Part shown: in pieces, positions 1,811 to 64,000 of the stretch
Numbering within the stretch: the stretch's first letter is position 1
Layout: each line of letters opens with the position of its first letter
NCBI GenBank assembly: GCA_018061035.1
Contig: JAGOUX010000001.1
Span: 6,817 to 70,816, forward strand
Reading direction: 5' to 3'
Source: Minisyncoccota bacterium
GTDB taxonomy: Bacteria; Patescibacteriota; Minisyncoccia; Phycocordibacterales; UBA9973
DNA: 64,000 bases
Position numbers and translations under genes: made by a program
The notes under the pieces: model-generated
The model's database searches: none
What the model saw: the letters and a program-made list of their open reading frames with translations, nothing else
What the model was told of the DNA's origin: nothing

Positions 1811-1816
1811 TGGTAA

Positions 1817-2083
1817 TTATTTATTGTAAAACTTCAGCCTCTTTTTCAATATTTCAGCTAATATTAATGCTACACCGCCTAGTATGGTTGTTAAGAAAAA
1901 TACCCCACCAAATTTTCCACTTCTTGCAGCATAAAGAATATCAGACAAAAGTAATAGTACTATGCTCTCAGCAAAGATATCAAAGTAAATAATCCCTGCG
2001 GCTACCATAAGAACAAATACCCAAAAAGGCATGAAAAATATTGAAAAAAGTATAACAAGTACAGACACGATACGAATAGCCAT
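1817..2083 (-). CDS. Small hydrophobic membrane protein (hypothetical)
   Basis: 88 aa ORF, almost entirely hydrophobic, co-directional and tightly spaced with neighbours. Confidence 0.3.
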   Translation of the reverse strand: MAIRIVSVLVILFSIFFMPFWVFVLMVAAGIIYFDIFAESIVLLLLSDILYAARSGKFGGVFFLTTILGGVALILAEILKKRLKFYNK

Positions 2084-10820: not shown

Positions 10821-11315
10821 TTAGATTGAATTTGAACTCGCAAGGCGTTTTAGGCCAATGAAAGCAATTCCACCTGATAGAGCCAATAGAGCTAGAAGGC
10901 CGTAAGTGTTGGCACCAGCACCTGTTGTAGGTAAGCCTGGATTTGTAGTTGTGCCACCAGGAATTGGAGCATTCGTAGCTACAAATGTTCCGTTACATGG
11001 CGCAGCTGTGATTGTGCTGTAGCCATAAATAGACGTACATCCTGCCAAGTATGAGATTGCAACTGAACCTCCACTACATGGAGCGCCATTTGTGACACTG
11101 TATCCTAATACACTCGAACAACCGTATAAGTTTCCCATGGTTGCAGTGGAAGTGCCATTACATGGAAGACCAGTTGTAACACTGTATCCCATCGCACTTG
11201 AACATCCCGAAGGAAAAGTCGCTGTCTGAGCACTAGCTGTCTCGGTTCCGCTAATAAACGCAATACTAAGCATGAATCCTAATACCATTGCTGATCCAAA
11301 TATTTTTTTAATCAT
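10821..11315 (-). CDS. LPXTG-anchored surface protein with tandem Cys-containing repeats
   Basis: Signal peptide; at least three ~26-aa repeats C-x5-Y-S-x-T-x-x-P-C-x-G; C-terminal LPTTG plus hydrophobic stretch plus KR tail. Confidence 0.7.
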   Translation of the reverse strand: MIKKIFGSAMVLGFMLSIAFISGTETASAQTATFPSGCSSAMGYSVTTGLPCNGTSTATMGNLYGCSSVLGYSVTNGAPCSGGSVAISYLAGCTSIYGYSTITAAPCNGTFVATNAPIPGGTTTNPGLPTTGAGANTYGLLALLALSGGIAFIGLKRLASSNSI

Positions 11316-19593: not shown

Positions 19594-19713
19594 ATGAATC
19601 CCGTTAGAAGCCGCGGTCGCATTCATTTCAAAATAAATGCTTTTACTAATATCAAAAAAATTATTACTATAAAAAAGCTTAACCGCGGTGTTACAACCGC
19701 GACCTGCTTCTAA
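19594..19713 (+). other. Upstream ORF within MITE copy 1 (39 aa, MNPVRSRGR...TATCF)
   Basis: ATG supplied by the left TSD copy, open through the element, TAA inside the right TIR 5 nt before the topA ATG. Confidence 0.45.
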
Positions 19714-19718
19714 ACGGG
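19599..19718 (+). mobile_element. MITE-like element, copy 1 (between the topA promoter and the topA start)
   Basis: TIRs CCCGTTAGAAGCCGCGGTCGC / GCGACCTGCTTCTAAACGGG; 5-bp direct repeat ATGAA at 19594-19598 and 19719-19723. Confidence 0.7.
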
Positions 19719-21935
19719 ATGAAATTATTAATCGTAGAGTCACCATCAAAAGCTAAAACTATCGAGAAATATCTCGAGGGTTCTTATACTGTGCGCGCAT
19801 CAGTTGGACATGTGCGAGATCTTCCGAAATCCAACAAAAAGGCGATCGACATCGAAGCAGGATTTCTCCCCCATTACGAAATTTCTAAAGGAAAAGAAAA
19901 AGTAGTTCACGAACTACAAGGTTTAGCTGAAAAAGCAACGGAAATAATGCTTGCGACAGACCCCGACCGTGAAGGTGAAGCCATAGCTTGGCATATTGAG
20001 ACACTTCTCCATGCAGACAAGAAAGTTAAGGCTCCGATTCATAGAGTAGCCTTTCACGAAATCACCAAAGAGGCAGTTGAAGAAGCGCTCTCACATCCCC
20101 GCAAAATAGATACTGCACTTCGAAAGGCGCAAGAAGCGCGTCGGGTACTCGATCGACTCGTAGGCTACGATCTTTCAGGAATAATTTGGAAAAAAGTTCG
20201 CTATGGATTATCTGCAGGGCGAGTTCAATCCCCAGCTCTCCGTATTATTATGGAACGTGAACGTGAGATTCGAGCTTTTGTGCCAGAAAAGTACTGGAGG
20301 CTTTTTGGAATTTTTGAAACATCTAAAAAAGATAAGCTGACACTTGAGTGTAGCGAAGAGCCTCGTGATGAAAAATTAGTAAATAAAATATTAGAAGAAG
20401 GCAAAAAGGGTTCATGGATAGTAAAGGGAGTAAAAGAGTCTGAGCAAAAGAGATCTCCTCGTGCTCCATTTACCACATCGACACTTCAGCAAACCGCGAG
20501 CTCACGATTGGGCTACTCACCTTCTCGCACTATGCAGATCGCTCAGAAGCTCTACGAAGCAGGACATATCACATATATGCGTACAGATAGTACAAACCTT
20601 GGCGCTTCTGCTCAGAGCCAAATTCTGGCATTCGTAAAAAAGCAATACGGCCCGGAATATGCTGAAGCTCACATATATAAGACTAAATCTAAGAATGCTC
20701 AAGAAGCTCACGAAGCCATCCGTCCTACACATATAGAGAAGATGCATGCCGGCACTGAGGAGCAGAGCCGTCTGTATCAACTTATTTGGGAGCGAGCTAT
20801 CTCTTCTCAGATGACCGACGCAAAACTACTCAAGACAAAAATCACCGCTGTTATCGAAGGCCATGAAGACCTCCCAGAATTCGGAGCAGTTGGCTCAAGA
20901 TTACTTTTCCCAGGATGGCTTGCAGCTGATACAGGTGCTCGAGGTGAAGATGTGGAACTACCACTTGTAAAAGCCGGCGAAAAATTAAAACTACTTGATC
21001 TCACAAGTGAAGAGAAGTTTACCGAGCCACCAGGCAGATATTCAGAGGCAGGTCTTGTGAAGGAGCTTGAGAGTAGAGGCATTGGCCGACCGTCGACCTA
21101 CGCATCTATCATGCGCACAATCGAAGATCGTGGCTATGTACGCAAGGAAGGCAAAACATTGTTCCCCACCGACACTGGTGAAGTAGTTTCAGATTTTCTC
21201 GAAGCACATTTCGCAAATTATATCTCTGATACATTTACAGCAGAAATGGAAGATGAGCTCGATGAAATCTCTCGCGGTGAACGTGAGTACGAAAAAACTT
21301 TGAAGGATTTTTATGGTCCATTCCTAAAAGAAGTTAAAGCTAAAGATAAGTTGGAAAAAGCAACCAATTTGGGAGATGCCCCAGATGGCACAAAATGTCC
21401 CAAATGTGGAAGTACGATGATTATAAAATTATCCCGAGGCGGTAAATTTTATTCTTGCTCTAAGTATCCAGACTGTGATGGTGCTCTCATGCTCGATGGT
21501 ACTGAATTAAAAGGCCCAGAAGAAACCGGCGAAATGTGTCCTACATGTGGAGACAAGAAGGGCAAATCAGGTGGAGGCAAGCTTGTTGTTCGACAGCGAC
21601 GAGACGGAGGCGGAAGTTTTATATCTTGCTCACGATATCCAAAATGCAAATTTATCAAACAAGACGAAGCGGAACTCGCTCGCAAGCGCACTGGGGTATT
21701 GTGCCCTCTGTGCAAAACCGGTGATATATCCGAACGCCGAGGCAGATTCGGAATATTCTACTCATGCTCCAACTACCCAGACTGCAAATATGCAATCAAG
21801 GCCAAGCCAACTGGAAATATTTGTAAAGAATGCGGAGCACTCATGATGGAAGGTACTAAGACAATCCCCGAGAGATGTTCAAACAAAGCATGTAAAATGC
21901 ACAATCCTCACAAAATCCCAAAAATTGAATCATAG
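19719..21935 (+). CDS. topA: DNA topoisomerase I
   Basis: TOPRIM/Topo IA core plus four C-terminal C4 zinc-ribbon repeats (CPKCG...CSKYPDC etc.). Confidence 0.9.
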   Translation: MKLLIVESPSKAKTIEKYLEGSYTVRASVGHVRDLPKSNKKAIDIEAGFLPHYEISKGKEKVVHELQGLAEKATEIMLATDPDREGEAIAWHIETLLHADKKVKAPIHRVAFHEITKEAVEEALSHPRKIDTALRKAQEARRVLDRLVGYDLSGIIWKKVRYGLSAGRVQSPALRIIMEREREIRAFVPEKYWRLFGIFETSKKDKLTLECSEEPRDEKLVNKILEEGKKGSWIVKGVKESEQKRSPRAPFTTSTLQQTASSRLGYSPSRTMQIAQKLYEAGHITYMRTDSTNLGASAQSQILAFVKKQYGPEYAEAHIYKTKSKNAQEAHEAIRPTHIEKMHAGTEEQSRLYQLIWERAISSQMTDAKLLKTKITAVIEGHEDLPEFGAVGSRLLFPGWLAADTGARGEDVELPLVKAGEKLKLLDLTSEEKFTEPPGRYSEAGLVKELESRGIGRPSTYASIMRTIEDRGYVRKEGKTLFPTDTGEVVSDFLEAHFANYISDTFTAEMEDELDEISRGEREYEKTLKDFYGPFLKEVKAKDKLEKATNLGDAPDGTKCPKCGSTMIIKLSRGGKFYSCSKYPDCDGALMLDGTELKGPEETGEMCPTCGDKKGKSGGGKLVVRQRRDGGGSFISCSRYPKCKFIKQDEAELARKRTGVLCPLCKTGDISERRGRFGIFYSCSNYPDCKYAIKAKPTGNICKECGALMMEGTKTIPERCSNKACKMHNPHKIPKIES

Positions 21936-24442: not shown

Positions 24443-24483
24443 GAAATGATTTTAACATATTAAAAAATATTTCGACAATTGAT

Positions 24484-24555
24484 CCCGTTAGAGATTATGT
24501 TAATTACTTGGGGAATAAAAGGTCAATTTTTATATATTTCTGGATCTCTAACGGG
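24484..24555. mobile_element. MITE-like element, copy 5 (short subfamily)
   Basis: Perfect 12-bp TIRs CCCGTTAGAGAT / ATCTCTAACGGG with a perfect 6-bp TSD ATTGAT at 24478-24483 and 24556-24561. Confidence 0.7.
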
Positions 24556-24604
24556 ATTGATTTTGAGTATAAATATGTGTATCATATGTGGATTAGCCCC
24601 TATT

Positions 24605-24688
24605 GCCCAGGTGGCGGAATTGGTAGACGCGATAGACTCAAAATCTATTGTTGGCAACAACATGAGAGTTCGATTCTCTCCCTGGGCA
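24605..24688 (+). tRNA. tRNA-Leu (anticodon CAA)
   Basis: Hand fold: acceptor GCCCAGG/CCUGGGC, anticodon loop CUCAAAA, long variable arm, T-arm GAGAG-UUCGAUU-CUCUC; 84 nt. Confidence 0.85.
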
Positions 24689-24783
24689 CAGAAACAGTAA
24701 ATTTATTTACTGTTGTGGAGAGATCGAAAGGATTTTCGTTGTTGAATGAAATGAAACCGAAAATCACCCGGCTAAGTAATAGC

Positions 24784-24806
24784 CGATTCTCTCCCTGGGC
24801 ACAGAG
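24784..24806 (+). repeat. Direct repeat of the tRNA-Leu 3' end (identical to 24671-24693)
   Basis: CGATTCTCTCCCTGGGCACAGA is repeated 113 bp downstream. Confidence 0.8.
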
Positions 24807-24819
24807 AAAATTAAACAAT

Positions 24820-26136
24820 ATGAAAAATAATACTGAGGATTTTGTAATAGAAGGCGGAAGGAAGCTTTCAGGTACGATCGAAACAAACACATCCAAAAAT
24901 GGCTCTGTGGGTCTTTTGTGCGCCGCATTGATAAATAAAGGCAAGACCACCCTTCATGGTATTTCTAAAATCGAAGAAGTCTACAGAGTCATCGAAATAC
25001 TAGAAAGTATCGGTGTCGATATTAAATGGGTTGGCGACCAAATCATCGAGATGCAACCACCAGCAAAGTTTAATCTCCGAGGTCTTGATCAGACAGCAGC
25101 ACTCAAAACTAGAAGCATCATCATGCTCGCTGGCCCGCTTATACACAATCTTAAATCCTTTTATCTTCCCCACGCTCAAGGTTGCAAACTCGGCAAACGC
25201 ACAGTTAGTGCTCATATCTACGGACTCGAAGAGCTAGGCGTAAAGATCAAGGTTACTAATCAAAACTATAATATTAGCTACAAAAAGCTTCACGCTCGAG
25301 AAATTATCATGTATGAATCTGGTGACACTGCATGCGAGAACCTCATCACCGCTGCTGCGCTAATACCCGGCAAAACTACTATAAAATTCGCCGCATCAAA
25401 TTATATGGTCCAGGAAGTATGTTTCTTTATGGAATCCTTGGGGGTTAAGATCGAGGGCATTGGTACTTCCACATTGGTAATCCATGGTGTCAAAGAGATC
25501 AACAAGGATCTCGAGTACTGCAATAGTGAAGATCCTATCGAATCTATGATGTGGATCACTGCTGCTATCGCTACAAATTCCGAACTTGAAATCAAACGCT
25601 GTCCTATAAATTTCCTAGAGCTAGAGCTTTATAAACTCAAAAAGATGGGTCTACGGTTTAAAGTTTCCCCTATTTACAAATCATACAATCACCGCACCAA
25701 CCTTGCCGATATAAAGGTTCTCCCTTCTAGGCTCAAAGCTCTCGAGGACAAGATCGAGGCACGTCCCTACCCAGGCATCAATATCGACAACCTTCCATTC
25801 TTTGGAATGATTGCCGCATGCGCCAAAGGTACAACTTTGATTCATGACTGGGTTTATGAAAATCGTGCAATTTACCTAACAGAATTAAATCGACTTGGTG
25901 GAACAGTACTTCTAGCAGATCCTCATAGAGTGTATGTGGAAGGTCCAACTAAGTGGAAACCAGGACAGCTAGTGTGCCCTCCTGCACTTCGTCCGTCTGT
26001 GGTTATCATGCTGGCTATGCTCGCAGCCAATGGTAATTCTACTCTTCACAATGTATATATGATCAAGCGCGGATATGAGGACATCGTAAACAGATTCAAC
26101 AGCATAGGTGCCAATATCAGATCAGTTCAGAACTAA
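24820..26136 (+). CDS. murA: UDP-N-acetylglucosamine 1-carboxyvinyltransferase
   Basis: EPT-fold MurA-like sequence. The ORF-track N-terminal extension runs through tRNA-Leu and is spurious; the start is the ATG at 24820. Confidence 0.85.
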   Translation: MKNNTEDFVIEGGRKLSGTIETNTSKNGSVGLLCAALINKGKTTLHGISKIEEVYRVIEILESIGVDIKWVGDQIIEMQPPAKFNLRGLDQTAALKTRSIIMLAGPLIHNLKSFYLPHAQGCKLGKRTVSAHIYGLEELGVKIKVTNQNYNISYKKLHAREIIMYESGDTACENLITAAALIPGKTTIKFAASNYMVQEVCFFMESLGVKIEGIGTSTLVIHGVKEINKDLEYCNSEDPIESMMWITAAIATNSELEIKRCPINFLELELYKLKKMGLRFKVSPIYKSYNHRTNLADIKVLPSRLKALEDKIEARPYPGINIDNLPFFGMIAACAKGTTLIHDWVYENRAIYLTELNRLGGTVLLADPHRVYVEGPTKWKPGQLVCPPALRPSVVIMLAMLAANGNSTLHNVYMIKRGYEDIVNRFNSIGANIRSVQN

Positions 26137-26143
26137 AACTACT

Positions 26144-26223
26144 CCCGTTAGAAATTCTATGATTGGAAACTTTACTAAAAGTGATATAACAATGGAAATG
26201 CGAAGCATTTCCTATTTCTAACG
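26144..26223 (+). mobile_element. MITE-like element, copy 6 (short TIR, between murA and miaA)
   Basis: TIRs CCCGTTAGAAAT / ATTTCTAACG, no clear TSD; the reading frame CCC GTT AGA ... TTC TAA is open throughout. Confidence 0.55.
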
Positions 26224-26225
26224 TG

Positions 26226-27101
26226 ATGCAAAAAGTTTTTGTTATACTCGGGCAAACAACTACCGGCAAGAGTGCTTTGGCGGTAAAATTGGCAAAGAAA
26301 ATTAACGGAGAAATTATCTCTGCTGATTCACGGCAAGTATACACAGGTCTGAATATAGGTAGCGGAAAAGTAACAAAAAAAGAAATGGCTGGTGTCCCCC
26401 ATCATTTGCTTGATGTTGTGAGCCTAAAGAAAAAATTCTCTGTTGCTGAATATCAAAAATTAGCAAATAGTGTAATCACTGAAATTATAAAGCGAGGTAA
26501 GGTACCAATTATAGTTGGCGGAACGGGGTTCTATATTGATGCTGTAACCAAAGGCATAGTCTTACCCGAAGTACCACCCAATCCTAAGCTACGCAAAGAG
26601 CTAGAGAAGAAGAGCCTGTCTCAATTGGTGACAATGCTCAAAAAGCTCGATCCCGCGCGAGTAAAAAATATTGATGTGAAAAATAAAGTACGCTTAATCC
26701 GAGCCATAGAAATATCCAAGACGCTTGGGAAGGTACCAAAAATTAAAATCATGAAACCCGCATATGAATTCGTGCAGTTAGGATTATTTCTCCCCGAGAA
26801 GAAATTGAGGTCAAAAATATCTACTCGTCTCAAATCTAGAATGACTCAAGGAATGCTTCGTGAAGCAAAGAGTTTAAATAAAAATGGTCTGTCGTGGAAG
26901 CGCATGCGAGAGCTAGGATTGGAATACAGATTTATGGCTCTTCATCTAGAAGGAAAAATTAACAAAAAAGAAATGATAGAGAAGCTAGAGAAAGAGATAT
27001 ATCAATACGCCAAACGCCAAATGACTTGGTTCAAGAGAGATCAGAGTATTATTTGGTTTGACGCTTCCAAGAAAATTAGCCTTCGTAAAATTGGTGTATA
27101 A
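26226..27101 (+). CDS. miaA: tRNA dimethylallyltransferase
   Basis: P-loop GQTTTGKSALAV and DSRQVY motif. Confidence 0.85.
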   Translation: MQKVFVILGQTTTGKSALAVKLAKKINGEIISADSRQVYTGLNIGSGKVTKKEMAGVPHHLLDVVSLKKKFSVAEYQKLANSVITEIIKRGKVPIIVGGTGFYIDAVTKGIVLPEVPPNPKLRKELEKKSLSQLVTMLKKLDPARVKNIDVKNKVRLIRAIEISKTLGKVPKIKIMKPAYEFVQLGLFLPEKKLRSKISTRLKSRMTQGMLREAKSLNKNGLSWKRMRELGLEYRFMALHLEGKINKKEMIEKLEKEIYQYAKRQMTWFKRDQSIIWFDASKKISLRKIGV

Positions 27102-27102
27102 T
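27097..27102 (+). promoter_or_regulatory. -10 hexamer TATAAT overlapping the miaA stop
   Basis: TATAAT lies 6 nt before the ATG at 27109 (the left TSD copy); consistent with a leaderless start before insertion. Confidence 0.4.
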
Positions 27103-27108
27103 GCCCAG

Positions 27109-27189
27109 ATGGATTCCGTTAGAAGCCGCGGTCGCAATTACAATCAAATAACCTTAAGTAGTCTCGGTCTGACCGCGACCTGCTTCTAA
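27109..27189 (+). other. Upstream ORF within MITE copy 2 (26 aa, MDSVRSRGR...TATCF)
   Basis: Starts at the ATG of the left TSD copy and ends at a TAA in the right TIR 4 nt before the murI ATG. Confidence 0.45.
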
Positions 27190-27192
27190 CGG
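27115..27192 (+). mobile_element. MITE-like element, copy 2 (inserted at the murI start codon)
   Basis: TIRs CCGTTAGAAGCCGCGGTCGC / GACCGCGACCTGCTTCTAACGG; 7-bp TSD GATGGAT at 27108-27114 and 27193-27199. Confidence 0.75.
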
Positions 27193-27193
27193 G

Positions 27194-27910
27194 ATGGATG
27201 CACGACCGATTGGAGTTTTTGATTCAGGTATAGGAGGACTGACAGTTCTCAAGGAACTACAAAAGGCTATGCCAAATGAGAATTTCATATACCTAGCAGA
27301 TCAGGCTCACTTACCGTATGGAAACAAAAGCAAAAAAGAACTGATAGGCATAACTAGCACTATCATGAATTACTTCCTCACAAAGGATGTGAAGCTTGTA
27401 GTTATAGCTTGCAACACTGCTACTGCAAATACCATCGATGCCCTTCGCAAGAAATATTCTCTACCCATTGTTGGTACAATTCCTGCAGTTAAGCCCGCAG
27501 CAGAAAATACAAAGACTGGAACTATCGCGGTATTATCTACACCCGCAACAGCAAAAAGTTCTGCTTTGAAGAAATTGATCAGACAGTATTGCCGAGGAAT
27601 AAAAGTGCTCAACATTCCCTGCCCCGATCTAGTTGCTCAAATAGAAAAAGGCGACCTAGATAGTACAAAAACAAAGAAACTTTTGGAAAAATACCTCAAG
27701 CCCGTAATAGATTCAAATGCTGACCATGTTGTCCTTGGATGTACCCATTACCCACTTCTCAAGAAACAGATGCAAAAAATATTAGGAAGAAAAGTAAAAA
27801 TTATAGACTCGGGAACAGCCATTGCAAAAAGAACAAAACATATTCTACAACGGGAAAATATAGAAAATAAAACTAGGGGTAAGACTATTTACCAAACTAC
27901 ACTTACTTAA
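27194..27910 (+). CDS. murI: Glutamate racemase
   Basis: VFDSGIGGLTV and GCTHYP motifs. Confidence 0.85.
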   Translation: MDARPIGVFDSGIGGLTVLKELQKAMPNENFIYLADQAHLPYGNKSKKELIGITSTIMNYFLTKDVKLVVIACNTATANTIDALRKKYSLPIVGTIPAVKPAAENTKTGTIAVLSTPATAKSSALKKLIRQYCRGIKVLNIPCPDLVAQIEKGDLDSTKTKKLLEKYLKPVIDSNADHVVLGCTHYPLLKKQMQKILGRKVKIIDSGTAIAKRTKHILQRENIENKTRGKTIYQTTLT

Positions 27911-35707: not shown

Positions 35708-35821
35708 CCCGTTAGAAGCAGGTCACGGTTGAATAACCGTGATTTAGCTTGATTATCTTATTAAATTTTTGAAGTTTGATTATCATTTTTTCTTAATATT
35801 GTGACCACTATTTCTAACGGG
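35708..35821. mobile_element. MITE-like element, copy 3 (abutting the mreB start codon)
   Basis: TIRs CCCGTTAGAAGCAGGTCACGG / TGTGACCACTATTTCTAACGGG; perfect 6-bp TSD ACCCAT at 35702-35707 and 35822-35827. Confidence 0.7.
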
Positions 35822-35863
35822 ACCCATGAAAGTAATATAACACATATATGCTAGAATAAAAGC

Positions 35864-38907: not shown

Positions 38908-39420
38908 TCAGCGCGGCCTGGAGAGCCAGAGATGAGGCACCAGCTCTTGGAGAGCCTCAGCTTGGGCCTCAGTGAGACCTACAGCCAGCACGGTGCCGAG
39001 CGCCGTCGTCATCAGTTTGGTCTCAGCGAAGGGGTCGCCATCCTGCATCAACCGCCTCCGGTTGAAGGCCGCCACGATGCGTGACGACTCCTCGTTATTC
39101 AGGCAAGGCGTCGTAGAGCTCATGGTGCAGGCCCCGACCAACAACGTCTCCTTTTTATCCGCAAACATCGCGTGGATGAACCAGGCATCCCCACCAGCAT
39201 TTATCTTTGTGACGTCTGTGCCGTACCTGGCCTTCGTCGGCTCGGGCAACAGCAATAGCGCAACGCAAAATGCTGCGCCAACACCACCGACAATCAATGT
39301 AGTGACCGCCAGCCACCACGCGAGGATCTGAGACTGTCCACCCGCCAGCCACTTGATTGAATCCGCCACACAAAAAGTGCAAACAAGCACCACCAACACT
39401 AACACGATCTTTCTGAACAT
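38908..39420 (-). CDS. Hypothetical two-TM membrane protein (GC-rich island B)
   Basis: GC-rich codon usage; likely start at MFRKIVLVLVV; GC hairpin terminator downstream at ~38831-38858. Confidence 0.4.
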   Translation of the reverse strand: MFRKIVLVLVVLVCTFCVADSIKWLAGGQSQILAWWLAVTTLIVGGVGAAFCVALLLLPEPTKARYGTDVTKINAGGDAWFIHAMFADKKETLLVGACTMSSTTPCLNNEESSRIVAAFNRRRLMQDGDPFAETKLMTTALGTVLAVGLTEAQAEALQELVPHLWLSRPR

Positions 39421-39598
39421 TTTTCCCCCTTGAGTTAATATACGATCCAAGATAAAGCACTAAAAATTCAAATATATTAAATTCTTAATGCTTTATCCAA
39501 GATTTTTTATTTTAAATGAGCAAAACATTATACTCTTGTAGTATAGCATAAATTATAGCAAAAGTCAATATTATTGTATTTAAAATAAAACTAATACA

Positions 39599-39629
39599 GG
39601 TCGGAGGAGAATGGTTTTCTCCGCCGACC
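39599..39629 (-). terminator. Rho-independent terminator for the island-B gene 39640..40272
   Basis: 13-bp stem GGTCGGAGGAGAA/TTCTCCGCCGACC, then a U-rich tract on the minus strand. Confidence 0.6.
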
Positions 39630-39639
39630 TGCTGTGTGA

Positions 39640-40272
39640 TTACAAGTGATTTTCAATCCGCAGGGCGGATTTGAAGAACCGGATCTTGTCATGCCGGTTC
39701 TTGGAATTGCAGCCCGCCTGGTACGCCAGGATGGCGTCCTTCTTGCGGACTACTCGCGCATCGGCCTCCAAGTTGGCCACCCGTCGATCTCCCTGCACCG
39801 GCATCGACGAAGCAGGTTCCGGATCAACACCCTTCCGCTGGAGTGACTCGAGAAGGCCGCGGTGCGACTTCTTGTGCTTCTCGGCCGAGCCGTTGTCCTC
39901 GAAGGCGACGAACCACTTCTTGAGTTCGTACAGGTTCCGGCACGCATCGAACCCAAGACGGAGTGCTCGACGTTCGTCCTCCGGCAGGTCGCGCTTGGCC
40001 AAGATCCGCTCGAACCTTGTACGAAACTTTTCCCGTCGTTCGAACGCCACGCGATTCTTCTTAAGGCCCGCGAGACAGGTGTTCACGAAATCGATGGCCT
40101 CCGTGATCACTTCGGGTTTTTTGTCCCCGAGAACCTCGGCGTACTCTGAATAATCCAGAGCCTGCCTAGCCGCTGAAGCCAACGCCGTTTTCAGGATGTT
40201 CATCCTGAGATTGGCGTCGACTTCCCCCCGCAGCCTGTCTGCCTGTGTCAAAAGCTCACTACGTTTCGACAT
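39640..40272 (-). CDS. Hypothetical charged/helical protein (GC-rich island B)
   Basis: 210-aa ORF with strongly GC-biased third codon positions; the antisense ORFs are Arg/Ser-rich artefacts. Confidence 0.5.
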   Translation of the reverse strand: MSKRSELLTQADRLRGEVDANLRMNILKTALASAARQALDYSEYAEVLGDKKPEVITEAIDFVNTCLAGLKKNRVAFERREKFRTRFERILAKRDLPEDERRALRLGFDACRNLYELKKWFVAFEDNGSAEKHKKSHRGLLESLQRKGVDPEPASSMPVQGDRRVANLEADARVVRKKDAILAYQAGCNSKNRHDKIRFFKSALRIENHL

Positions 40273-40315
40273 CTACCCCCCACTGAAAACTGTCAAACAA
40301 CAAACAACAAACAAC

Positions 40316-40346
40316 AAAAAACTAGTATTATTTATACTAGTTTTTT
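40316..40346 (-). terminator. Palindromic terminator after atpC (end of the atp operon)
   Basis: AAAAAACTAGTAT-TATTT-ATACTAGTTTTTT, perfect 13-bp arms flanked by A/T runs (bidirectional), next to an (AACAA)n simple repeat. Confidence 0.65.
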
Positions 40347-40361
40347 GGAAAAAGTCAATCT

Positions 40362-40808
40362 CTATTTTCTATATTTTCGCACCTTCCACTTGTCGGCAAT
40401 TTTTACACGTGTAAGTGATCGTTCGAGCTCAGACACGAAGTGCTCGTAGTCTACATGCTCTTTGTTTTCCATTAGCTTGTGAAGCTCTTCACTTCTCGCT
40501 ATGGCCTGAGCAATCTTTTCATCTCCAAGCTCGGATACATGTTCCGCGAAATCAGCAAGCACAGCAACCTCTGTCTCCCCGTGTGATCCGTGTTTGACTT
40601 CGAGAAATCCGCCAACAATAGCCATAGGTACATGCTCGCCATTTACTACAGCCACAACATCTCCAGATCCAAGAGCGGAAATAAGACCGATATGCTCAGG
40701 CAAGATAGTTATCTCCCCTTCTGTGGTAGGCAAAGAAACCTGATCCACATTTTCTTCGAGAATCAGTTTCTCTGGTGTCACTATCTTTAATTTTATTTGT
40801 TTTGACAT
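40362..40808 (-). CDS. atpC: ATP synthase F1 epsilon subunit
   Basis: Position and sequence in the atp operon. Confidence 0.8.
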   Translation of the reverse strand: MSKQIKLKIVTPEKLILEENVDQVSLPTTEGEITILPEHIGLISALGSGDVVAVVNGEHVPMAIVGGFLEVKHGSHGETEVAVLADFAEHVSELGDEKIAQAIARSEELHKLMENKEHVDYEHFVSELERSLTRVKIADKWKVRKYRK

Positions 40809-40851
40809 AATTTTGAAAAAATTTCAGATTCGAAATTTTTAAAGACCTGAA

Positions 40852-42249
<1,398 letters not shown>

Positions 42250-43182: not shown

Positions 43183-43258
43183 CCCATTATAAATTTTAAT
43201 TAATAATCTTTCATTATTTTATCCTGCCCGTTCAATTTATAACGGGTCAAGTATAATT

Positions 43259-48952: not shown

Positions 48953-49300
48953 TTAGTACTCTCGGCGTCCACCGCGGCTTGCACCACCGTAACCACCATT
49001 TGAGCCTCCTCCGTATCCACCGCCATTTCCACCTGTTCGTGGAGGACGAGCTTCCATAGGGCGAGCCTCATTTACAGTCAATTTGCGTCCTTCGAATTCC
49101 TGATCGTTGAACATTGAGATCGCCTTTGCAGCCTCATCAGCTGAAGACATTTCAACGAATCCAAATCCCTTAGAACGACCAGACATTTTGTCCATGATAA
49201 TCACAGCTGAGGTAACATTACCTGCCTGTGCAAAAAGATCTCGTAGAGCATCTTCTTGTGTACTGTAAGGTAGTCCCCCTACATATAGCTTTGTAGCCAT
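48953..49300 (-). CDS. RRM-domain RNA-binding protein with Gly-rich tail
   Basis: RNP2 KLYVGGL and RNP1 KGFGFVEM, C-terminal GGNGGGYGGG; start taken at MATKLYV. Confidence 0.75.
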   Translation of the reverse strand: MATKLYVGGLPYSTQEDALRDLFAQAGNVTSAVIIMDKMSGRSKGFGFVEMSSADEAAKAISMFNDQEFEGRKLTVNEARPMEARPPRTGGNGGGYGGGSNGGYGGASRGGRREY

Positions 49301-49475
49301 CTTCTTTACTTCTTCCCTTTTTCCTAAAAAGGACAAAAAACTATTTTATAAACGTAGAAACTCTTTTTTCGCTAAATGAGAAACTACCCCAAAAGTGTAA
49401 CACAGATTGCTAAAATAGCAATCAAGCAAATTAAATGGCGCCGCATGACCAAGTCAGGCGGCGCCAAATTTTTTG

Positions 49476-49709
49476 CTAATTCTCTAGATCAGAGCTGTCC
49501 CCGTAGTCGATGAGCGGAGGCGGCTCCTCGATATCTGGAACGGCGTCCATTGGGGACGTCTGACGAATGATCGGTACGCGCTCGATCTGTTCGAGCTGCC
49601 GCCTGATCGGGACATTTCCTCGTATAGCCTCTCGATCGAAGAAATCATCCACATCATGTGGCTCTCGACGCGCTCGCGTCACTTTTGCATCATTCCGAAT
49701 GCTACGCAT
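49476..49709 (-). CDS. Hypothetical acidic protein (GC-rich island C)
   Basis: 77-aa GC-rich ORF with the GC hairpin GGCGCCGC...GCGGCGCC plus a T-run downstream. Confidence 0.3.
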   Translation of the reverse strand: MRSIRNDAKVTRARREPHDVDDFFDREAIRGNVPIRRQLEQIERVPIIRQTSPMDAVPDIEEPPPLIDYGDSSDLEN

Positions 49710-49807
49710 TTACCACCACCCCCGAAAAAAACGAAAGAAAAACTGAACCAGATATATGTTACCTTAGAATTTATTAAACGACAACGTAAAACCCATTTTA
49801 CATATTA

Positions 49808-49836
49808 TTGACAATTTTCAAATATAGTGTAAGAAT
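49808..49836 (+). promoter_or_regulatory. Sigma70-like promoter for the island-C lipoprotein
   Basis: Perfect -35 TTGACA, 17-nt spacer, TGt-AAGAAT extended -10, then the RBS GGAGG 7 nt before the ATG at 49880. Confidence 0.55.
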
Positions 49837-49879
49837 AATCTCGATTAGGTTCGCATCCCGCGAGCTCGGAGGCACACCC

Positions 49880-50299
49880 ATGAAAGCCAAGACTGCTCTT
49901 TCCATTCTCGTCTTCCTGGCGTTGGGACTCAGCGTCGCCTGCTCGAAGTCTTCACCGACAGCACCGACACCAACCCCGGTCACCTACACGGTGGCTATCA
50001 CCCCGACTGCTTCCACGTTGACCTTCAAGGCCGGCGCGGGCGCTCCGCTGACCTTCACTGCCAGAATCACAGGGAGTGACGGTACCACAGTGGCACCATC
50101 CGCATCTGATGCGGTGGTGATCACCTTCGGCACGTCTGGGGTCGCGACAGCGACGATGCAGACGCCCGTGGCGACCAGCACCAGTCTGATCCAGACCGTC
50201 AGCTTTGGTGGCACGAAGGTCGGCACAACCACGGCAACGGCGACCATGTCCAACCCCAAGTACGTGGGGAACGTCACCGTGACCATCGTCGTGCAATAG
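49880..50299 (+). CDS. Lipoprotein with Ig-like (Big_2-like) Thr/Ala/Val-rich domain, GC-rich codon usage
   Basis: Signal peptide with lipobox LSVA-C; beta-rich T/A/V composition; strong third-position GC bias. Confidence 0.6.
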   Translation: MKAKTALSILVFLALGLSVACSKSSPTAPTPTPVTYTVAITPTASTLTFKAGAGAPLTFTARITGSDGTTVAPSASDAVVITFGTSGVATATMQTPVATSTSLIQTVSFGGTKVGTTTATATMSNPKYVGNVTVTIVVQ

Positions 50300-50319
50300 A
50301 CGGTGAGACAGAACAAAAA

Positions 50320-50348
50320 GCGAGAGTCTGCTCACGGCAGACTCTCGC
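50320..50348 (+). terminator. GC hairpin after the lipoprotein gene
   Basis: GCGAGAGTCTGC-tcacg-GCAGACTCTCGC, perfect 12-bp stem, no U-tract. Confidence 0.5.
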
Positions 50349-50600
50349 AATAACACAACGAACATAAGTTCGCATTATCTAAAGTCGTTAGCACCCCAAA
50401 AAAGCGGTACTAACGGCTTTTTTGATTTCTGTTATTTATTTCACAAACTGCAAACTCCTCACTCAAAAAACTTCCAACAACAAACTAACTATTAAAATAT
50501 ATTAAATCCAGATGGCATGCAAAAGGCCCCGTCGACATCTGTCGACGGGGCCGATTTTCTTCGTGCTCAAGCCTACCATTGGTTCTGAATGTGACCAATA

Positions 50601-50930
50601 TCACACCGGCGACATTTCTGCCTCGGAAGAACCATTACTGCTGTTTTTGTGGTGTCGGTGACGCCCTTGATACCTCGCAGGGTACTGGCTTTCGTTTTCG
50701 ACCAAACGTTCGAGAAGAAGGATAAACTTGTCGAGAATGCCGTGCTTATTCATCCGGCGTAATTCGACCATTGCCCAGTACTGGTCCTTATGCGAGAAGA
50801 ACAAATAGACCAGTCGCACACGCAACTTCTTGATTCTTTCTGCTTGTCGCTTTAGGCCTCCCTTTTTACGATGTGGGTATACATGCAGGTCAACACGATC
50901 CCTTTCGCACCGCCTCTGGTTCACATGCAT
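50601..50930 (-). CDS. Hypothetical protein, possible degenerate HNH-like remnant
   Basis: RRCERDRVDLHVYPHRKKGG loosely resembles the C-x2-C...DHxxP..GG segment of HNH nucleases but lacks the second Cys pair; GC hairpin terminator at 50525-50552. Confidence 0.25.
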   Translation of the reverse strand: MHVNQRRCERDRVDLHVYPHRKKGGLKRQAERIKKLRVRLVYLFFSHKDQYWAMVELRRMNKHGILDKFILLLERLVENESQYPARYQGRHRHHKNSSNGSSEAEMSPV

Positions 50931-51021
50931 CAGGTCTTCGCCTTTCGCTTAAACCAAAGTACACCAAGAACTAATTACAAAAATATTCTACATCAGTAAA
51001 AATTTTGTGCAATATAAGATT

Positions 51022-52281: not shown

Positions 52282-52400
52282 TCCGTTAGAGATAGAAAAT
52301 CTTTAGATTTTCGTAATTAAATTACTCCTAATAAACAAAATAACCAATTCGATTAGTTATTATTCATGAATTCCATTAAACCAATAGATCTCTAACAGAA
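52282..52400. mobile_element. MITE-like element, copy 7 (abutting the rpmE start codon)
   Basis: TIRs TCCGTTAGAGAT / ATCTCTAACAGA (one mismatch); 5-bp TSD TTCAT at 52277-52281 and 52401-52405. Confidence 0.65.
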
Positions 52401-53838: not shown

Positions 53839-54492
53839 TTATTTTGCGTCTGGAGTAGCTTCTCCTGCACCTTCTTCTTCTTTCTTACCTTTCTTTTCTA
53901 CTTCGATAGCAGATAGATCAACTGGAGCTGCTTCTTCTTCTTTTTCTTCAACCTGAGCAACGATAGAAGCGACAACTTCTGTAGCCGGAGTTATAGCTTC
54001 AACACCTGATGGAAGCTTGATGTCAGCAACAGTTACTACATCTTCGAGAGTATTCAATCCTGTGACATCTGCAACAAGATTATGAGGAAGATCCTTAGGA
54101 AGAGCTTCGATTTCGATTTCGTGTAGAACCTTAACAAGGTTACCAATTCCACTCTTCACAGCTCCGGCTACACCTTCGAATTCGAGAGGAACATTGACCT
54201 TGATCTTCTTCTTCATGTCGATAGCAAGGAAGTCAGCATGTATAGGCTCGCTAGTAACAGGGTCTACCTGCACATCGTGGATAAGTACATCTACATCTCC
54301 TTCTGGAGTTGAGACAACAATAGCAGAAGACTCTCCGGCATCTCTCCAAACCTTCTTAAAATCAACAATAGATACAGAGATAGAAGTAGTTTCCTTGCCT
54401 GCTCCGTAAAAAACAGCAGGGATTTCTCCCCCTTTTCTTAGAACATCTAGTTTTACTCCCTCATCTCGCTTTTTAGCTTTGATTACAAACAT
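53839..54492 (-). CDS. rplY: 50S ribosomal protein L25 / general stress protein Ctc
   Basis: N-terminal KAKKRDEGVKLDVLRKGGEIPAVFYG; long form with acidic C-tail. Confidence 0.8.
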   Translation of the reverse strand: MFVIKAKKRDEGVKLDVLRKGGEIPAVFYGAGKETTSISVSIVDFKKVWRDAGESSAIVVSTPEGDVDVLIHDVQVDPVTSEPIHADFLAIDMKKKIKVNVPLEFEGVAGAVKSGIGNLVKVLHEIEIEALPKDLPHNLVADVTGLNTLEDVVTVADIKLPSGVEAITPATEVVASIVAQVEEKEEEAAPVDLSAIEVEKKGKKEEEGAGEATPDAK

Positions 54493-54623
54493 ACAGACAA
54501 GTATATACAAAAAATTTAAAAAAGCAAATAAAAAAGCCGTCAGTGCTCTTCCGTGGAAGTCTTAACGACTTTGACTATATGGACGCGGTAGGCAAGCCTT
54601 GTTCTGCCTGCCTACCGATATCT

Positions 54624-55070
54624 CTATCCGAACATGACCTCGAAGCCAGCTTCCTTGGCCTCGCGGACGAGGAATGCCTCCGTCATGGAATCATCCCCAA
54701 AACTCGGAAGAAAGAGCTTTGGCGCTGGCTTCTCGTCCGTATTCTTCCGACGGGCACGAGGCCGAGCTGAGACGAGTCCGTGCTCCTTCCACTCGTGCTC
54801 ACCCGTGTACTGAACCAGCCAGAGATACGACGCACCGATGCCAGCCACTTGATGACTCTCTGGGATGTACGGAACGCACGCCCAAGTGCAGCCGTGCAAG
54901 GCCGTACGAAGCTCCGGCAACGGATTGATCCGAAACCGGTAGCCGACATCGAGGTGCGACTGGATCAGTCGAAGCGCGTCCGACAAAACCAAGCGACCCC
55001 CGGGGTCAGGCTGTCCATCCAGCATCGCCATGAGACGATGATGAAAACTACGATTACTCTCTTTGTGCAT
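54624..55070 (-). CDS. Hypothetical protein (GC-rich island D)
   Basis: 148-aa GC-rich ORF; GC hairpin GGTAGGCA...TGCCTACC downstream. Confidence 0.35.
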   Translation of the reverse strand: MHKESNRSFHHRLMAMLDGQPDPGGRLVLSDALRLIQSHLDVGYRFRINPLPELRTALHGCTWACVPYIPESHQVAGIGASYLWLVQYTGEHEWKEHGLVSARPRARRKNTDEKPAPKLFLPSFGDDSMTEAFLVREAKEAGFEVMFG

Positions 55071-57789: not shown

Positions 57790-57905
57790 TCCGTTAGAGG
57801 CAGGTCGCGATCTTCGCTTCCTGTAAATTATTTATAATGTAGTTAGTAGTAATAATGTTATTAATTAATCTTAATGGTATTTTGTGACCGCGGCCTCTAA
57901 CGGAA
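57790..57905 (-). mobile_element. MITE-like element, copy 4 (abutting the fba start codon)
   Basis: TIRs CCGTTAGAGGCAGGTCGCGA / TGTGACCGCGGCCTCTAACGG; 5-bp TSD TTCAT at 57785-57789 and 57906-57910. Confidence 0.7.
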
Positions 57906-63654: not shown

Positions 63655-64000
63655 ACAAGAAGATAGGGTGGCGACCACACGGTCGCCACCCTCGCGAGAA
63701 AATATATCAAGCACCGAAGAGCATATGCCCGATCGGTGCTTTCTTCGTTTTACCCTTAATGTGCTAAAATATATGGACTTGTCCCGTTATAAATTTAGCT
63801 CGCGGGATTTTGTAAATAAAGATTATTAATTAAAATTTATAATGGGATGCAAATTATTTGGATATTATTGGGAGTTATCGCAGGAGGCCTAGTAGCATAT
63901 GCTATCCTAGGAAAAAAGAGAGATGATTCAAATGGAGCCAAGGATCAATCCTTACTTCTTCTTCAGCAACAAATGGCCGAGCTCGCGAGAGCCCTTGATT

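Follow-up and report, generated by a model that had tools for sequence, protein, structure and literature searches.

A MITE-like inverted-repeat element family at start codons in Patescibacteria, with a putative translational relay into the downstream gene

In the window (the whole 64-kb stretch of DNA analysed), the murI gene is preceded by miaA and separated from it by a short inverted-repeat element. The miaA coding sequence (IPPT family) was taken from the ORF list at 26226..27101 on the + strand, and the IPPT Pfam family was reported for the same gene at locus L122. Its stop codon TAA (27099-27101) lies within a TATAAT (27097-27102, +), conserved as part of GGTGTATAATGCCC, which is the putative -10 hexamer of murI and ends 6 nt before the ancestral ATG. 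The hexamer is followed by GCCCA (27103-27107), by GATGGAT (27108-27114), by the element and, past it, by a second GATGGAT (27193-27199), in which the ATG of murI starts at 27194. The murI gene itself (27194..27910, +) encodes a glutamate racemase, as indicated by the Pfam family Asp_Glu_race and by named homologues. This arrangement of stop codon, TATAAT, GATGGAT pair and element had been described in a sequence-only reading of the locus, and all of its parts were found where that reading had placed them.

The same reading had regarded the whole GATGGAT as the target-site duplication. Comparison with 116 other copies of the element showed instead that the duplication at this site is 5 bp long (ATGGA), not 7, with the left copy at 27109-27113 and the right copy, which forms the first five nucleotides of murI, at 27194-27198. 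The element itself contributes the T at 27114 and the G at 27193, its terminal bases, which lie outside the duplication; the usual termini in the family are TC at the start and G at the end. Among the 116 copies, the flanking direct repeat was 5 nt long in 62, 4 nt in 19 and 6 nt in 5. The element has integrated exactly at the murI start codon with a 5-bp duplication, so that the right duplicate restores the ATG of murI one base past the last G of the element, while the left duplicate (+ strand) represents the start codon that murI once used and the predicted 5' end of the transcript; the empty site of a relative has a single ATGGA (see below).

The murI element, referred to here as copy 2, spans 27114..27193 on the + strand (TT-CCGTTAGAAGC...GCTTCTAACGG-G) and, being 80 nt long, is a short variant of a family whose usual length is about 116 nt. 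It was matched by the covariance model with 74.2 bits (E = 7.5e-21) on the + strand and with 34.5 bits on the - strand. The 5' arm (27116..27133, +) consists of one strand of helix 1, CCGTTAGAAGC, followed by one strand of helix 2, CGCGGTC; the 3' arm (27171..27192, +) consists of GACCGCG (helix 2), an ACCT bulge (27178-27181) and GCTTCTAACGG (helix 1), and includes a TAA at 27187-27189. The 18-mer arm occurs three times in the sequence against none expected from shuffles, which excludes chance. An ORF of 26 codons (MDSVRSRGRNYNQITLSSLGLTATCF; 27109..27189, +), proposed in the sequence-only reading and now verified, runs from the duplicated ATG at 27109 to the TAA in the arm and ends 4 nt before the ATG of murI; the TAA-CGGG-ATG junction upstream of murI is likewise present in the sequence.

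A natural empty site was found in a relative (L123) whose MurI is 80% identical. There, the element is missing and the site reads TGTATAAT-gccccc-ATGGATTCACGACC (...ttggTGTATAATgcccccATGGATTCACGACCGATTGG), with a single ATGGA. The pre-insertion site that had been reconstructed by removing the element, TATAAT-6 nt-ATGGAT, agrees with this natural site except for two substitutions, and the ancestral murI site is TATAAT-6 nt-ATG. The idea that murI was originally leaderless is well supported by several features of the sequence. In L123, the gene upstream of murI is divergent and only 56 nt away, so that the promoter must adjoin the ATG; the window, L122 and L123 differ in what lies upstream but share GGTGTATAATGCCC, and in all three the TATAAT-6 nt-ATG geometry is present at murI. 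Across the window, a TAnnnT ending at -7/-8 was found at 17 of the 55 element-free gene starts compared with 3.7% of all ATGs (p = 8e-12), and Shine-Dalgarno-like 4-mers at 5 of the 55, which is under background. The reconstructed target sites of the family showed a TAnnnT ending at -7/-8 in 31 of 81 cases. The host genome is thus, as far as its sequence tells, largely leaderless and devoid of Shine-Dalgarno sequences; this makes a leaderless ancestral murI, which combines a -10 hexamer about 6-7 nt from the ATG with no Shine-Dalgarno sequence, a well-founded proposal. A literature search for leaderless transcripts in Patescibacteria (CPR) returned no relevant paper.

Nine copies of the element were detected by the covariance model in the 64 kb of the window. 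Of these, five had been seen in the sequence-only reading, and their placement at the starts of topA, mreB, fba and rpmE in addition to murI was borne out, together with the duplications proposed for them (ATGAA at topA, ATGGG(T) at mreB, and ATGAA at fba and rpmE, which reads TTCAT on the + strand); the total was an underestimate. Copy 1 (19599..19718, +; 84.4 bits) precedes topA (ATG 19719) and is flanked by ATGAA at 19594-19598 and 19719-19723. On the - strand, copy 3 (35708..35822; covariance model match, duplication ATGGG) precedes mreB (ATG 35707), copy 4 (57790..57905; 88.8 bits, duplication ATGAA) precedes fba (class II aldolase, ATG 57789), and copy 5 (52282..52400; E = 0.007, duplication ATGAA), which has arms of a 'GAGAT' subtype, precedes rpmE (ATG 52281). 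The additional copies are located before miaA, atpG and an ORF at 63847, and upstream of a tRNA-Leu. Copy 7 (26143..26225, +; E = 4e-5) is degenerate, has lost its duplication and ends 1 nt before the ATG of miaA (26226). Copy 8 (43183..43246, -; E = 0.03-0.14) is degenerate and short and ends 1 nt before the ATG of atpG (43182), and the related copy 9 (63782..63846, +; E = 0.002), also degenerate and short, stands directly before the ATG at 63847 (ORF MQIIWILLGV...). Copy 6 (24483..24555, +, with the strand ambiguous; E ~2.5e-6), between a divergent gene and the tRNA-Leu, is the sole window copy off a start codon, and is flanked by ATTGA at 24478-24482 and 24556-24560. Each of the other eight ends 1 nt ahead of a start codon. 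Decay in place is evident in window copies 5 and 7-9 as well as at locus L090, and strict in-place conservation of the arms was consequently dropped as a feature of the family.

The evidence for mobility is not limited to murI. Empty sites were found at mreB (L012, L104 and L035, with an orthologous mreB copy at L082), at atpG (L078) and at topA, where an empty orthologous site was also present. One element was found inside another, at an internal ATGAA (L052), and in one MAG contigs break at near-identical copies. Perfect 5-bp duplications vary from site to site, and include duplications not of the start-codon type (GTGGA, ACAGA, GTCAA, ATTGA). The family therefore displays the attributes of a MITE: terminal inverted repeats; target-site duplications that differ between sites (ATGAA, ATGGA, ATGAG, ATGTA, GTGGA and ACAGA among them); small size (62-120 bp), no transposase gene and many copies (nine per 64 kb in the window, and several per MAG in public loci); and presence/absence polymorphism at orthologous sites (murI, mreB, atpG). 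As for its source of mobility, no pair of arms more than 260 bp apart enclosed an ORF in the 119 loci and the window, neither a transposase nor an autonomous element having these ends turned up in the window or in the roughly 0.9 Mb of flanking DNA, and the Pfam scan of the unannotated window ORFs tested revealed no transposase domain. The 3' arm had 0 hits among the viral contigs scanned, and hence there was no sign of a phage vector. On these grounds, we judge the family to be a non-autonomous, inverted-repeat, MITE-like element, mostly of about 116 bp, distributed across Patescibacteria.

The position of the element relative to genes is far from random. Of the 122 copies from other genomes, 113 have their 3' arm 1 nt before the start codon of an ORF of at least 50 codons (median 211 codons), which substantiates the enrichment at start codons that had been anticipated from the window. 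The genes concerned (topA, murI, mreB, fba, rpmE, ssb, murG, tig) are functionally unrelated. The predicted preference for ATG(A/G)(A/G) as target is also strongly supported, since the flanks were ATGAA in 49 cases, ATGGA in 21, ATGAG in 9 and ATGGG in 7, with ATGTA, ATGGC and a few non-ATG targets making up others. Even though the outer 12 nt of both arms are identical, the orientation relative to the gene is uniform except for one reversed copy, L117, which may provide an N-terminal extension. Outside coding sequences, the window contains 25 ATGRR sites that are annotated starts and 57 that are not (about 30% starts); these non-start sites, about twice as numerous as the start sites, are almost never occupied. 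A sister subfamily with CC...GG ends is found at GTYRA targets, away from start codons. The most likely cause of start-codon residence is a combination of target preference for (T)ATGRA by a putative transposase and survival of those insertions and orientations that kept the gene expressed. The arm sequence is conserved across many Patescibacteria classes, a statement to be read with the caution that the public copies were gathered by an exact 19-mer of the 3' arm, which inflates the apparent conservation of that arm.

The two arms pair over 12 bp and 7 bp, TCCCGTTAGARGC-CGCGGTC with GACCGCG-ACCT-GCYTCTAACGGG. In 60 copies, 98.2% of the cells were paired, and 25 cells carried changes on both sides, a number that none of 500 shuffles attained; in orthologous insertions at murG, a compensatory change of CGCGGTC/GACCGCG to CGCGATC/GATCGCG was observed. 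The long-range helix was predicted with a mean probability of 0.95, with pairing also predicted for the first two bases of the host AUG. When transcribed, the repeats should accordingly fold, in the model, into a 19-bp stem that hides the AUG of the gene. A K-turn in this stem was considered and set aside, as there are no G.A pairs. Neither in the window nor in the nine loci searched did any copy match a family of Rfam 15, whether at the gathering threshold or at E <= 10. The Rfam matches obtained in this material were to tRNAs and to one RNase P RNA only.

A second feature of the family is a short ORF ending at the TAA of the 3' arm. The frame of this TAA is free of stop codons across the interior in 43 of 116 copies, while the other frames are open in 14 and 5, and the interior ATGs in phase with it number 80, compared with 28 and 25 in the other phases, and cluster 63-72 nt upstream of the TAA. 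Indels preserve the phase of the internal ATG even though the interiors can barely be aligned. In 50 of 105 copies, an ATG-initiated ORF of 20 codons or more terminates at the arm TAA, while dinucleotide shuffling gave 6.6 +/- 2.4 (max 14). Such ORFs occur in five of the eight start-codon copies of the window: besides the one at murI, there is an ORF of 39 codons from the duplicated ATG to the arm TAA in copy 1 (topA), one of 38 codons extending to the arm TAA in copy 4 (fba), an internal one of 24 codons (MIIKLQKFNKIIKLNHGYSTVTCF) terminating there in copy 3 (mreB), and one of 20 codons in copy 7 (miaA). This excess suggests a built-in translational relay, although part of the signal could derive from shared ancestry of the copies rather than from selection. 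An ORF to the TAA of 20 codons or more is missing from about half of the copies, among them copies 5, 8 and 9 (before rpmE, atpG and another gene), and copy 5 has no ATG-initiated ORF to the arm TAA at all; since these copies stand before genes nonetheless, the relay cannot be indispensable. For the same reason, namely that copies without the ORF also precede essential genes such as rpmE and atpG, the earlier claim that murI is reached only via the TAA-CGGG-AUG junction is too strong in its 'only' as far as copy 2 is concerned, while coupling at the level of the family, in a broader form, is supported by the ORF excess. It should be noted that an ORF starting at the duplicated ATG, as in copy 2, was rejected as a family-wide feature, because in only 17 of 90 copies does it reach the TAA, and the duplicated ATG has no significantly preferred phase with respect to the TAA (37:29:24). 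A fixed internal promoter was rejected too: the positions of TAnnnT within the element are diffuse, with no peak 6-7 nt before the internal ATG.

Several known systems resemble the element in part. Correia elements (the CREE/NEMIS MITE of Neisseria) are recognized by a TA duplication and a characteristic 26-bp repeat. The present element shares with them a size of the order of 100-150 bp, long terminal inverted repeats, the lack of a transposase and many gene-adjoining copies. However, Correia elements make TA duplications at varied intergenic sites, occur in either orientation, carry promoter and IHF sites and have other end sequences, whereas the element described here has a 5-bp ATGRA duplication, is placed in one orientation, 1 nt ahead of the start codon, and contains an ORF that ends 4 nt before the ATG; with its different arm sequence and its Patescibacteria hosts, it does not belong to the Correia family. 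Integron attC sites have the box order RYYYAAC...GTTRRRY and lie at the ends of cassettes in an array next to IntI; IS200/IS605 and REP/REPIN-RAYT systems have subterminal hairpins but no terminal inverted repeats, and insert 3' of a fixed tetra- or pentanucleotide with no target duplication. With attC sites and REP/REPIN hairpins the element has in common imperfect palindromes, conserved ends, bulges, a variable interior and covariation that preserves pairing; it differs in the opposite polarity of its boxes, the absence of cassette arrays and of the GTAG REP motif, and its 5-bp duplications. Identity with attC was discarded in view of the reversed box order (5'-GTTAGAA...TTCTAAC-3') and the housekeeping neighbours, and derivation from IS200/IS605 or REP/REPIN-RAYT in view of the terminal inverted repeats and variable 5-bp duplications. 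Co-transcription with the neighbouring gene, giving an RNA hairpin that affects it, is another trait of Correia elements, there through RNase III cleavage (PMC10969869), the hairpin being a prediction in our case. Rickettsia palindromic elements are likewise small, palindromic and mobile, live in compact genomes, spare the host gene and contain an ORF (PMC10969869), but they are inserted in frame within coding sequences and translated as part of the host protein, while the present element, of unrelated sequence, remains outside the protein and its ORF ends before the gene. Finally, termination-reinitiation coupling (ATGA, TAATG; Huber et al., PMC6728339, PMC10666635) also involves a stop codon a few nucleotides from the next start, as in TAA-CGGG-ATG, and an upstream ORF whose translation would open the structure at the downstream AUG; in the known cases an ordinary gene acts as this ORF, and here a putative ORF of 21-40 codons from a mobile element would do so. 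The literature search on the arm sequence and on MITEs in Patescibacteria/CPR found no paper describing the element, and a 2024 review of prokaryotic MITEs (PMC10969869) mentions neither start codons nor CPR.

Taken together, it is reasonably probable that the whole set of observations is explained by a MITE-like family which resides at start codons and carries a translational relay. According to this explanation, the murI promoter would still be a leaderless one, and transcription would now begin at the left ATG copy (27109) and proceed through the element. In the RNA, the arms would pair as a stem of 12 bp and 7 bp with an ACCU bulge, burying the A and U of the murI AUG. A ribosome would begin on the short ORF, at the 5'-terminal duplicated AUG in copy 2 or at an AUG in the A-rich loop in most members of the family, translate through the 3' arm and so melt the stem, halt at the invariant UAA and reinitiate 4 nt further on at the AUG of the gene. 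A relay borne by the element could make insertion at start codons tolerable, which would matter in a host genome that appears to depend on leaderless starts and termination-reinitiation, without Shine-Dalgarno sequences. Known coupling depends steeply on the distance between stop and start (PMC6728339, PMC10666635) and fails at a gap of about 20 nt (PMC10666635), so that a 116-nt insertion would break it unless a stop codon were returned to the side of the AUG.

Other explanations have to be weighed against this one. It is not very likely, though it deserves serious consideration, that the family is purely selfish. A transposase preferring ATGRA, lethality of genic insertions and deletion of copies elsewhere by streamlined genomes would then leave only the start-codon copies, the downstream gene would be served by Shine-Dalgarno-independent internal initiation or by chance promoters in the AT-rich interior, and the short ORF would be an ancestral relic. 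The in-place decay of arms and ORF (window copies 5 and 7-9, and L090) and the lack of the ORF in half of the copies fit this account, as does the fact that the host genome already translates internal genes without Shine-Dalgarno sequences, and the sister CC...GG subfamily at GTYRA implies that the element or its enzyme determines the choice of target at least in part. It leaves unaccounted for, however, the arm-TAA ORF at about seven times its shuffled frequency with the internal ATG phase kept through indels, the near-invariant orientation despite the same outer 12 nt in both arms, and the almost complete vacancy of non-start ATGRR sites outside coding sequences, which outnumber the starts by about 2:1; moreover, a stem that buries the AUG, as predicted, would have to be opened in some way. 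Hardly credible is an immobile cis-regulatory leader or operator belonging to these genes. A leader of this kind would naturally keep a constant distance from the ATG and have arms conserved in many classes, but the idea is already contradicted by the empty sites and target duplications: the element is absent from orthologous genes in relatives, the direct repeats on either side agree with the second codon of the gene concerned, a nested copy exists, the host genes have no common function and no Rfam family was matched.

The stem might, with a rather low probability, be an RNA-processing cassette, cut by RNase III or another conserved nuclease to give an mRNA with a very short leader or none, the arm conservation then reflecting recognition by the nuclease. 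Such processing would suit the predicted high stability of the 19-bp stem with its conserved asymmetric bulge, the retention of RNase III and RNase J in Patescibacteria (PMC12641178), the cleavage of transcribed Correia elements by RNase III at their inverted repeats (reviewed in PMC10969869) and the use of leaderless starts by the host genome. Nevertheless, RNase III cuts inside a stem and not at its base, and would leave no 5'-terminal AUG; the frame-conserved ORF ending at the TAA would be unexplained, and the conservation of the 3' arm is partly a product of the way the copies were collected. It appears similarly improbable that the element moves as folded single-stranded DNA, through a HUH/RAYT-like enzyme (as REPINs and IS200/IS605 derivatives do) or through an integron-type tyrosine recombinase acting on an attC-like site. 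Compensatory changes maintaining the pairing of the arms, orientation-specific insertion, conserved ends around an interior of variable length, as in attC sites, and the negative search for a DDE transposase nearby would all be expected from it. Against it stand the target-dependent 5-bp duplications, which denote staggered cuts and are not made by IS200/IS605 or RAYT enzymes, the polarity of the GTT...AAC boxes, opposite to that of attC, the housekeeping genes in place of cassette arrays as neighbours, and the one reversed copy (L117). Two further mechanisms were set aside: translational bypassing of the gene 60 type, as there is no stop after the take-off codon, and BHB-type RNA splicing, as no motif is present; furthermore, we know of no BHB splicing enzyme in bacteria.

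Going one step beyond the start-codon MITE with a relay, we put forward more tentatively, and with somewhat less than even confidence, that it could represent a distinct type of mobile element adapted to start codons in ultra-compact genomes devoid of Shine-Dalgarno sequences, in which the duplication rebuilds the ATG, the 5' end gives stops to an overlapping upstream gene, and a micro-ORF in the loop unfolds the hairpin and passes the ribosome to the host gene 4 nt past the UAA.

If this further proposal is true, about one gene in eight in the host organism would be translated via a transposon-borne relay, and the very strong conservation of the arms from class to class within Patescibacteria would stem from recognition by a conserved enzyme. 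For genome annotation, the conserved 3' arm followed by G-ATG flags true gene starts in hundreds of uncultivated genomes, while the 5' ATG copy and the short ORFs can mislead gene callers. The arm and micro-ORF, as modelled here, would be a natural portable coupling cassette that could serve genetics in Patescibacteria. The element would also offer a testable handle on translation initiation in these bacteria, with their leaderless starts, reinitiation and lack of Shine-Dalgarno sequences. For transposon biology, it would illustrate how an element can reach a density of about one copy per seven genes where intergenic space is all but lacking: the start codon itself serves as the safe site, and the element brings along the means to keep the gene translated.

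The sequence at the start of murI (27194-27910, Asp_Glu_race) reads just as the sequence-only reading had described it. The stop codon of miaA (TAA, 27099-27101) falls within the hexamer TATAAT (27097-27102), followed by GCCCAG, ATGGAT, the inverted-repeat element (copy 2 of its family in the window) and G-ATGGAT-GCACGACC, the opening of murI. The 5' arm of the element (CCGTTAGAAGC-CGCGGTC) occupies 27116-27133, and the 3' arm (GACCGCG-ACCT-GCTTCTAACGG) 27171-27192. The left ATG (27109) opens an ORF of 26 codons, whose TAA (27187-27189) lies 4 nt ahead of the murI ATG. A target duplication is present, but it is 5 bp long (ATGGA) and not 7 as proposed, because comparison with other copies identifies T 27114 and G 27193 as the element's own terminal bases, outside the duplication. 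The pre-insertion site that had been reconstructed from the window was checked against relatives and exists as a natural empty site, aatattggTGTATAATgcccccATGGATTCACGACCGATTGG, at the element-free murI locus L123 (MurI 80% identical). L122, a strain whose MurI is 99% identical, still has the element, behind a different upstream gene; in more distant relatives the element is absent, and murI is coupled to ddl, from which it is separated by 1-4 nt. In L122 (260-902), an opposite-strand NUDIX gene lies between miaA and murI, and GGTGTATAATGCCCAG is retained with the same element. A 43-codon ORF (27058-27189) runs across copy 2 in the mechanical ORF list; the element can therefore mislead start calling.

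A scan with the 19-mer CGYGACCTGCYTCTAACGG, in which each species was represented by one genome, returned at least 119 stretches. The hosts among the matches listed were nearly all Patescibacteria MAGs, drawn from many lineages (Saccharibacteria, Paceibacteria, and Nomura-, Kaiser-, Zambryski-, Moran-, Buchanan-, Komeili-, Taylor-, Harrison- and Niyogibacteria), and the window itself belongs to a 'Pacebacteria' MAG; its MreB shares 93% identity with the MreB of a Paceibacterota MAG (L082). Among the same matches, 116 of 122 3' arms were followed by one base and then a start codon, which in 113 of those 116 opened an ORF of at least 50 codons (median 211). In the 116 listed copies with a recognisable 5' arm, the intervening base was G in 113 and the arm was preceded by TC in 108; the modal length, from TC through the final G, was 116-121 nt. 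It should be noted that the 3' arm was set by the search pattern, which partly accounts for its conservation; the 5' arm, outside that pattern, is 94-100% conserved over 20 positions in the matches listed. Element interiors are A-rich and barely alignable, and decayed copies exist (L090; copies 5 and 7-9 of the window).

When the window was searched with a covariance model trained on 60 copies, nine loci were found, and nothing else convincing over its whole length. The copies precede topA, murI, mreB, fba, rpmE, miaA, atpG and an ORF at 63847, and one lies upstream of tRNA-Leu; eight of the nine stop one base short of a start codon. The four best gave much better scores when read along the gene than on the other strand (e.g. 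88.8 vs 49.8 bits). Together the copies cover 1.2% of the window and stand before roughly every eighth gene. The enrichment at gene starts that had been predicted from the window is strongly supported, with 113 of 122 listed 3' arms and eight of nine window copies adjoining starts. In the mechanical ORF list, murA (24508-26136) is given a TTG start at 24508, an upstream extension that crosses both tRNA-Leu and copy 6; this shows how elements can mislead start calling.

The family is a mobile element. Both ends are flanked by direct repeats whose sequence varies with the second codon of the gene concerned (ATGAA, ATGGA, ATGAG, ATGTA, ATGGG, ATGCAA); 62 of the listed copies have repeats of 5 nt, 19 of 4 nt and five of 6 nt. 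Duplications without ATG also occur (GTGGA, ACAGA, GTCAA, and ATTGA in the window). In a Saccharibacteria MAG (L052, about 1780-2060, minus strand), one element is nested in the interior ATGAA of another, both upstream of topA. The contigs of one MAG end at identical copies, and relatives carry element-free orthologues of mreB (L012, L104, L035) and atpG (L078). An interior (T)ATGAAA, present in many copies, resembles the family's own target. No transposase was found in about 0.9 Mb of flanking DNA or in the window, and no viral contig scanned contained the 3' arm.

As to the identity of the element, no Rfam family matched any copy in the window or in the nine other loci searched. An attC site was rejected for its reversed box polarity, a REP element or IS200/IS605 derivative because terminal repeats and target duplications are present, and a Correia element because both duplication and arm sequence differ.

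The arms would fold, as RNA, into two helices of 12 and 7 bp, separated by a 4-nt bulge (ACCU) on the 3' strand. Pairing holds in 98.2% of cells; five pairs and 25 cells are altered on both sides, a result matched by none of 500 shuffles. Among orthologous murG insertions, which share flanks and have alignable interiors, helix 2 changes from CGCGGTC/GACCGCG to CGCGATC/GATCGCG. When 105 copies were folded with their flanks, the long-range helix had a mean probability of 0.95, and the host AUG was predicted to have its A and U paired.

Why the copies sit at start codons may be considered in terms of selection and of target choice. The window contains 629 ATGRR sites, 540 of them within coding sequence, 25 at annotated starts and 57 at non-start positions outside coding sequence; lethality within genes alone would thus place about 30% of surviving insertions at starts, whereas more than 90% are observed there. 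Orientation to the gene is also nearly fixed, with one reversed copy (L117) among about 115. The proposed target preference ATG(A/G)(A/G) agrees with the commonest flanks, ATGAA, ATGGA, ATGAG and ATGGG. In addition, a sister subfamily with CC...GG ends (43-141 nt; L026 865-1006 and 1279-1349, L032 1273-1390, L045 7435-7504, L105 1254-1315) duplicates GTCAA, GTTGA, GTTAA or GTCGA (GTYRA) away from start codons, and this different target implies that the choice of site lies in part with the element itself or with its enzyme. The most likely explanation is therefore sequence preference together with selection for position and orientation, in shares that are not separable here. The reversed copy (L117 5114-5231) stands where a 426-codon ORF begins on the opposite strand; an ATG inside the copy shares the frame of the host ATG, and a start there would extend the protein by 12 residues.

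The murI start had been read as probably leaderless. The upstream gene is divergent in L122 and L123, the intergenic region of L123 is 56 nt, and GGTGTATAATGCCC is kept in all three contexts (window, L122, L123). Because the divergent region is short and the sequence conserved, the promoter would have to be the -10 box ending 6 nt before the ATG. TAnnnT ends at -7/-8 in 17 of 55 element-free window starts, compared with 3.7% of all ATGs (p = 8e-12), and 12 of those 17 have TGnTAnnnT; Shine-Dalgarno-like 4-mers occur at five of the 55 window starts, under the 13% background. Reconstructed target sites among the matches listed show the same peak (31/81). From the conserved box and the window-wide peak, which support the earlier reading, we infer leaderless transcription of murI. 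About 45% of the listed insertions lie 30 nt or less from the stop codon of a gene upstream that runs in the same direction, so the element lands on every kind of start codon, not solely on leaderless ones; seven upstream genes in the matches listed end at a TAG within the 5' arm.

The ORF from the duplicated ATG reaches the arm TAA in 17 of 90 copies, with unbiased phase. The interior, however, is stop-free in the arm-TAA frame in 43 of 116 copies, vs 14 and five in the other frames, and 80 interior ATGs are in phase with that TAA, vs 28 and 25. The in-phase ATGs concentrate 63-72 nt upstream of the TAA, giving ORFs of 21-24 codons (e.g. MKSNIEKINNIKYQIRELIATCF). In 50 of 105 copies, an ORF that starts with ATG and has 20 codons or more ends at the arm TAA, vs 6.6 +/- 2.4 (maximum 14) after dinucleotide shuffling of the interiors. 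In the window, the ORF starts at the duplicated ATG in copies 1, 2 and 4, and at an internal ATG in copies 3 and 7. The internal ATG has A-rich surroundings and T at -1, as at host gene starts; no fixed -10 box precedes it in the family copies. Since termination-reinitiation is lost at a gap of about 20 nt (PMC10666635), a stop 4 nt ahead of the AUG is what a 116-nt insertion would need to stay harmless. These statistics suggest that a ribosome ending the ORF at the arm TAA may reinitiate at the gene, and hence a probable translational relay in the family.

Several other features were observed. The 3' end (24671-24701) of tRNA-Leu(caa) (24605-24689) is repeated at 24784-24814 (87% identity), 113 nt downstream and just before murA, and looks like the attachment-site scar of an integrated element. 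There are patches of higher G+C (39000-42000, 49000-51000, 54000-55000; 0.46-0.52 vs a mean of 0.41). Pfam gave no match for ORFs 39640-40272(-), 38908-39420(-), 49880-50299(+) and 54624-55070(-), and for some of these the sequence upstream is G-rich, which sets them apart from the remainder of the window. A 67-nt direct repeat (11057-11123/11141-11207, 73% identity, spacing 84) makes the protein of ORF 10821-11315(-) internally repetitive. At L067 (3015-3120), the upstream ORF runs 33 nt into the element before it stops, and the triplet after the element, at the head of an open frame of 1065 codons, is ACT in place of ATG; translation may begin at a non-AUG codon here, the start may have mutated, or the triplet may be a sequencing error. 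In a Buchananbacteria MAG, the match to the 367-position RNase P RNA model extends over 718 nt (L028, 248-965), indicating a large insertion in rnpB.

In the literature searched, no paper described this element or any MITE targeting start codons. The interpretation proposed for murI is supported and extends to the whole family, which can be described as a Patescibacteria MITE that is associated with start codons and probably carries a translational relay.
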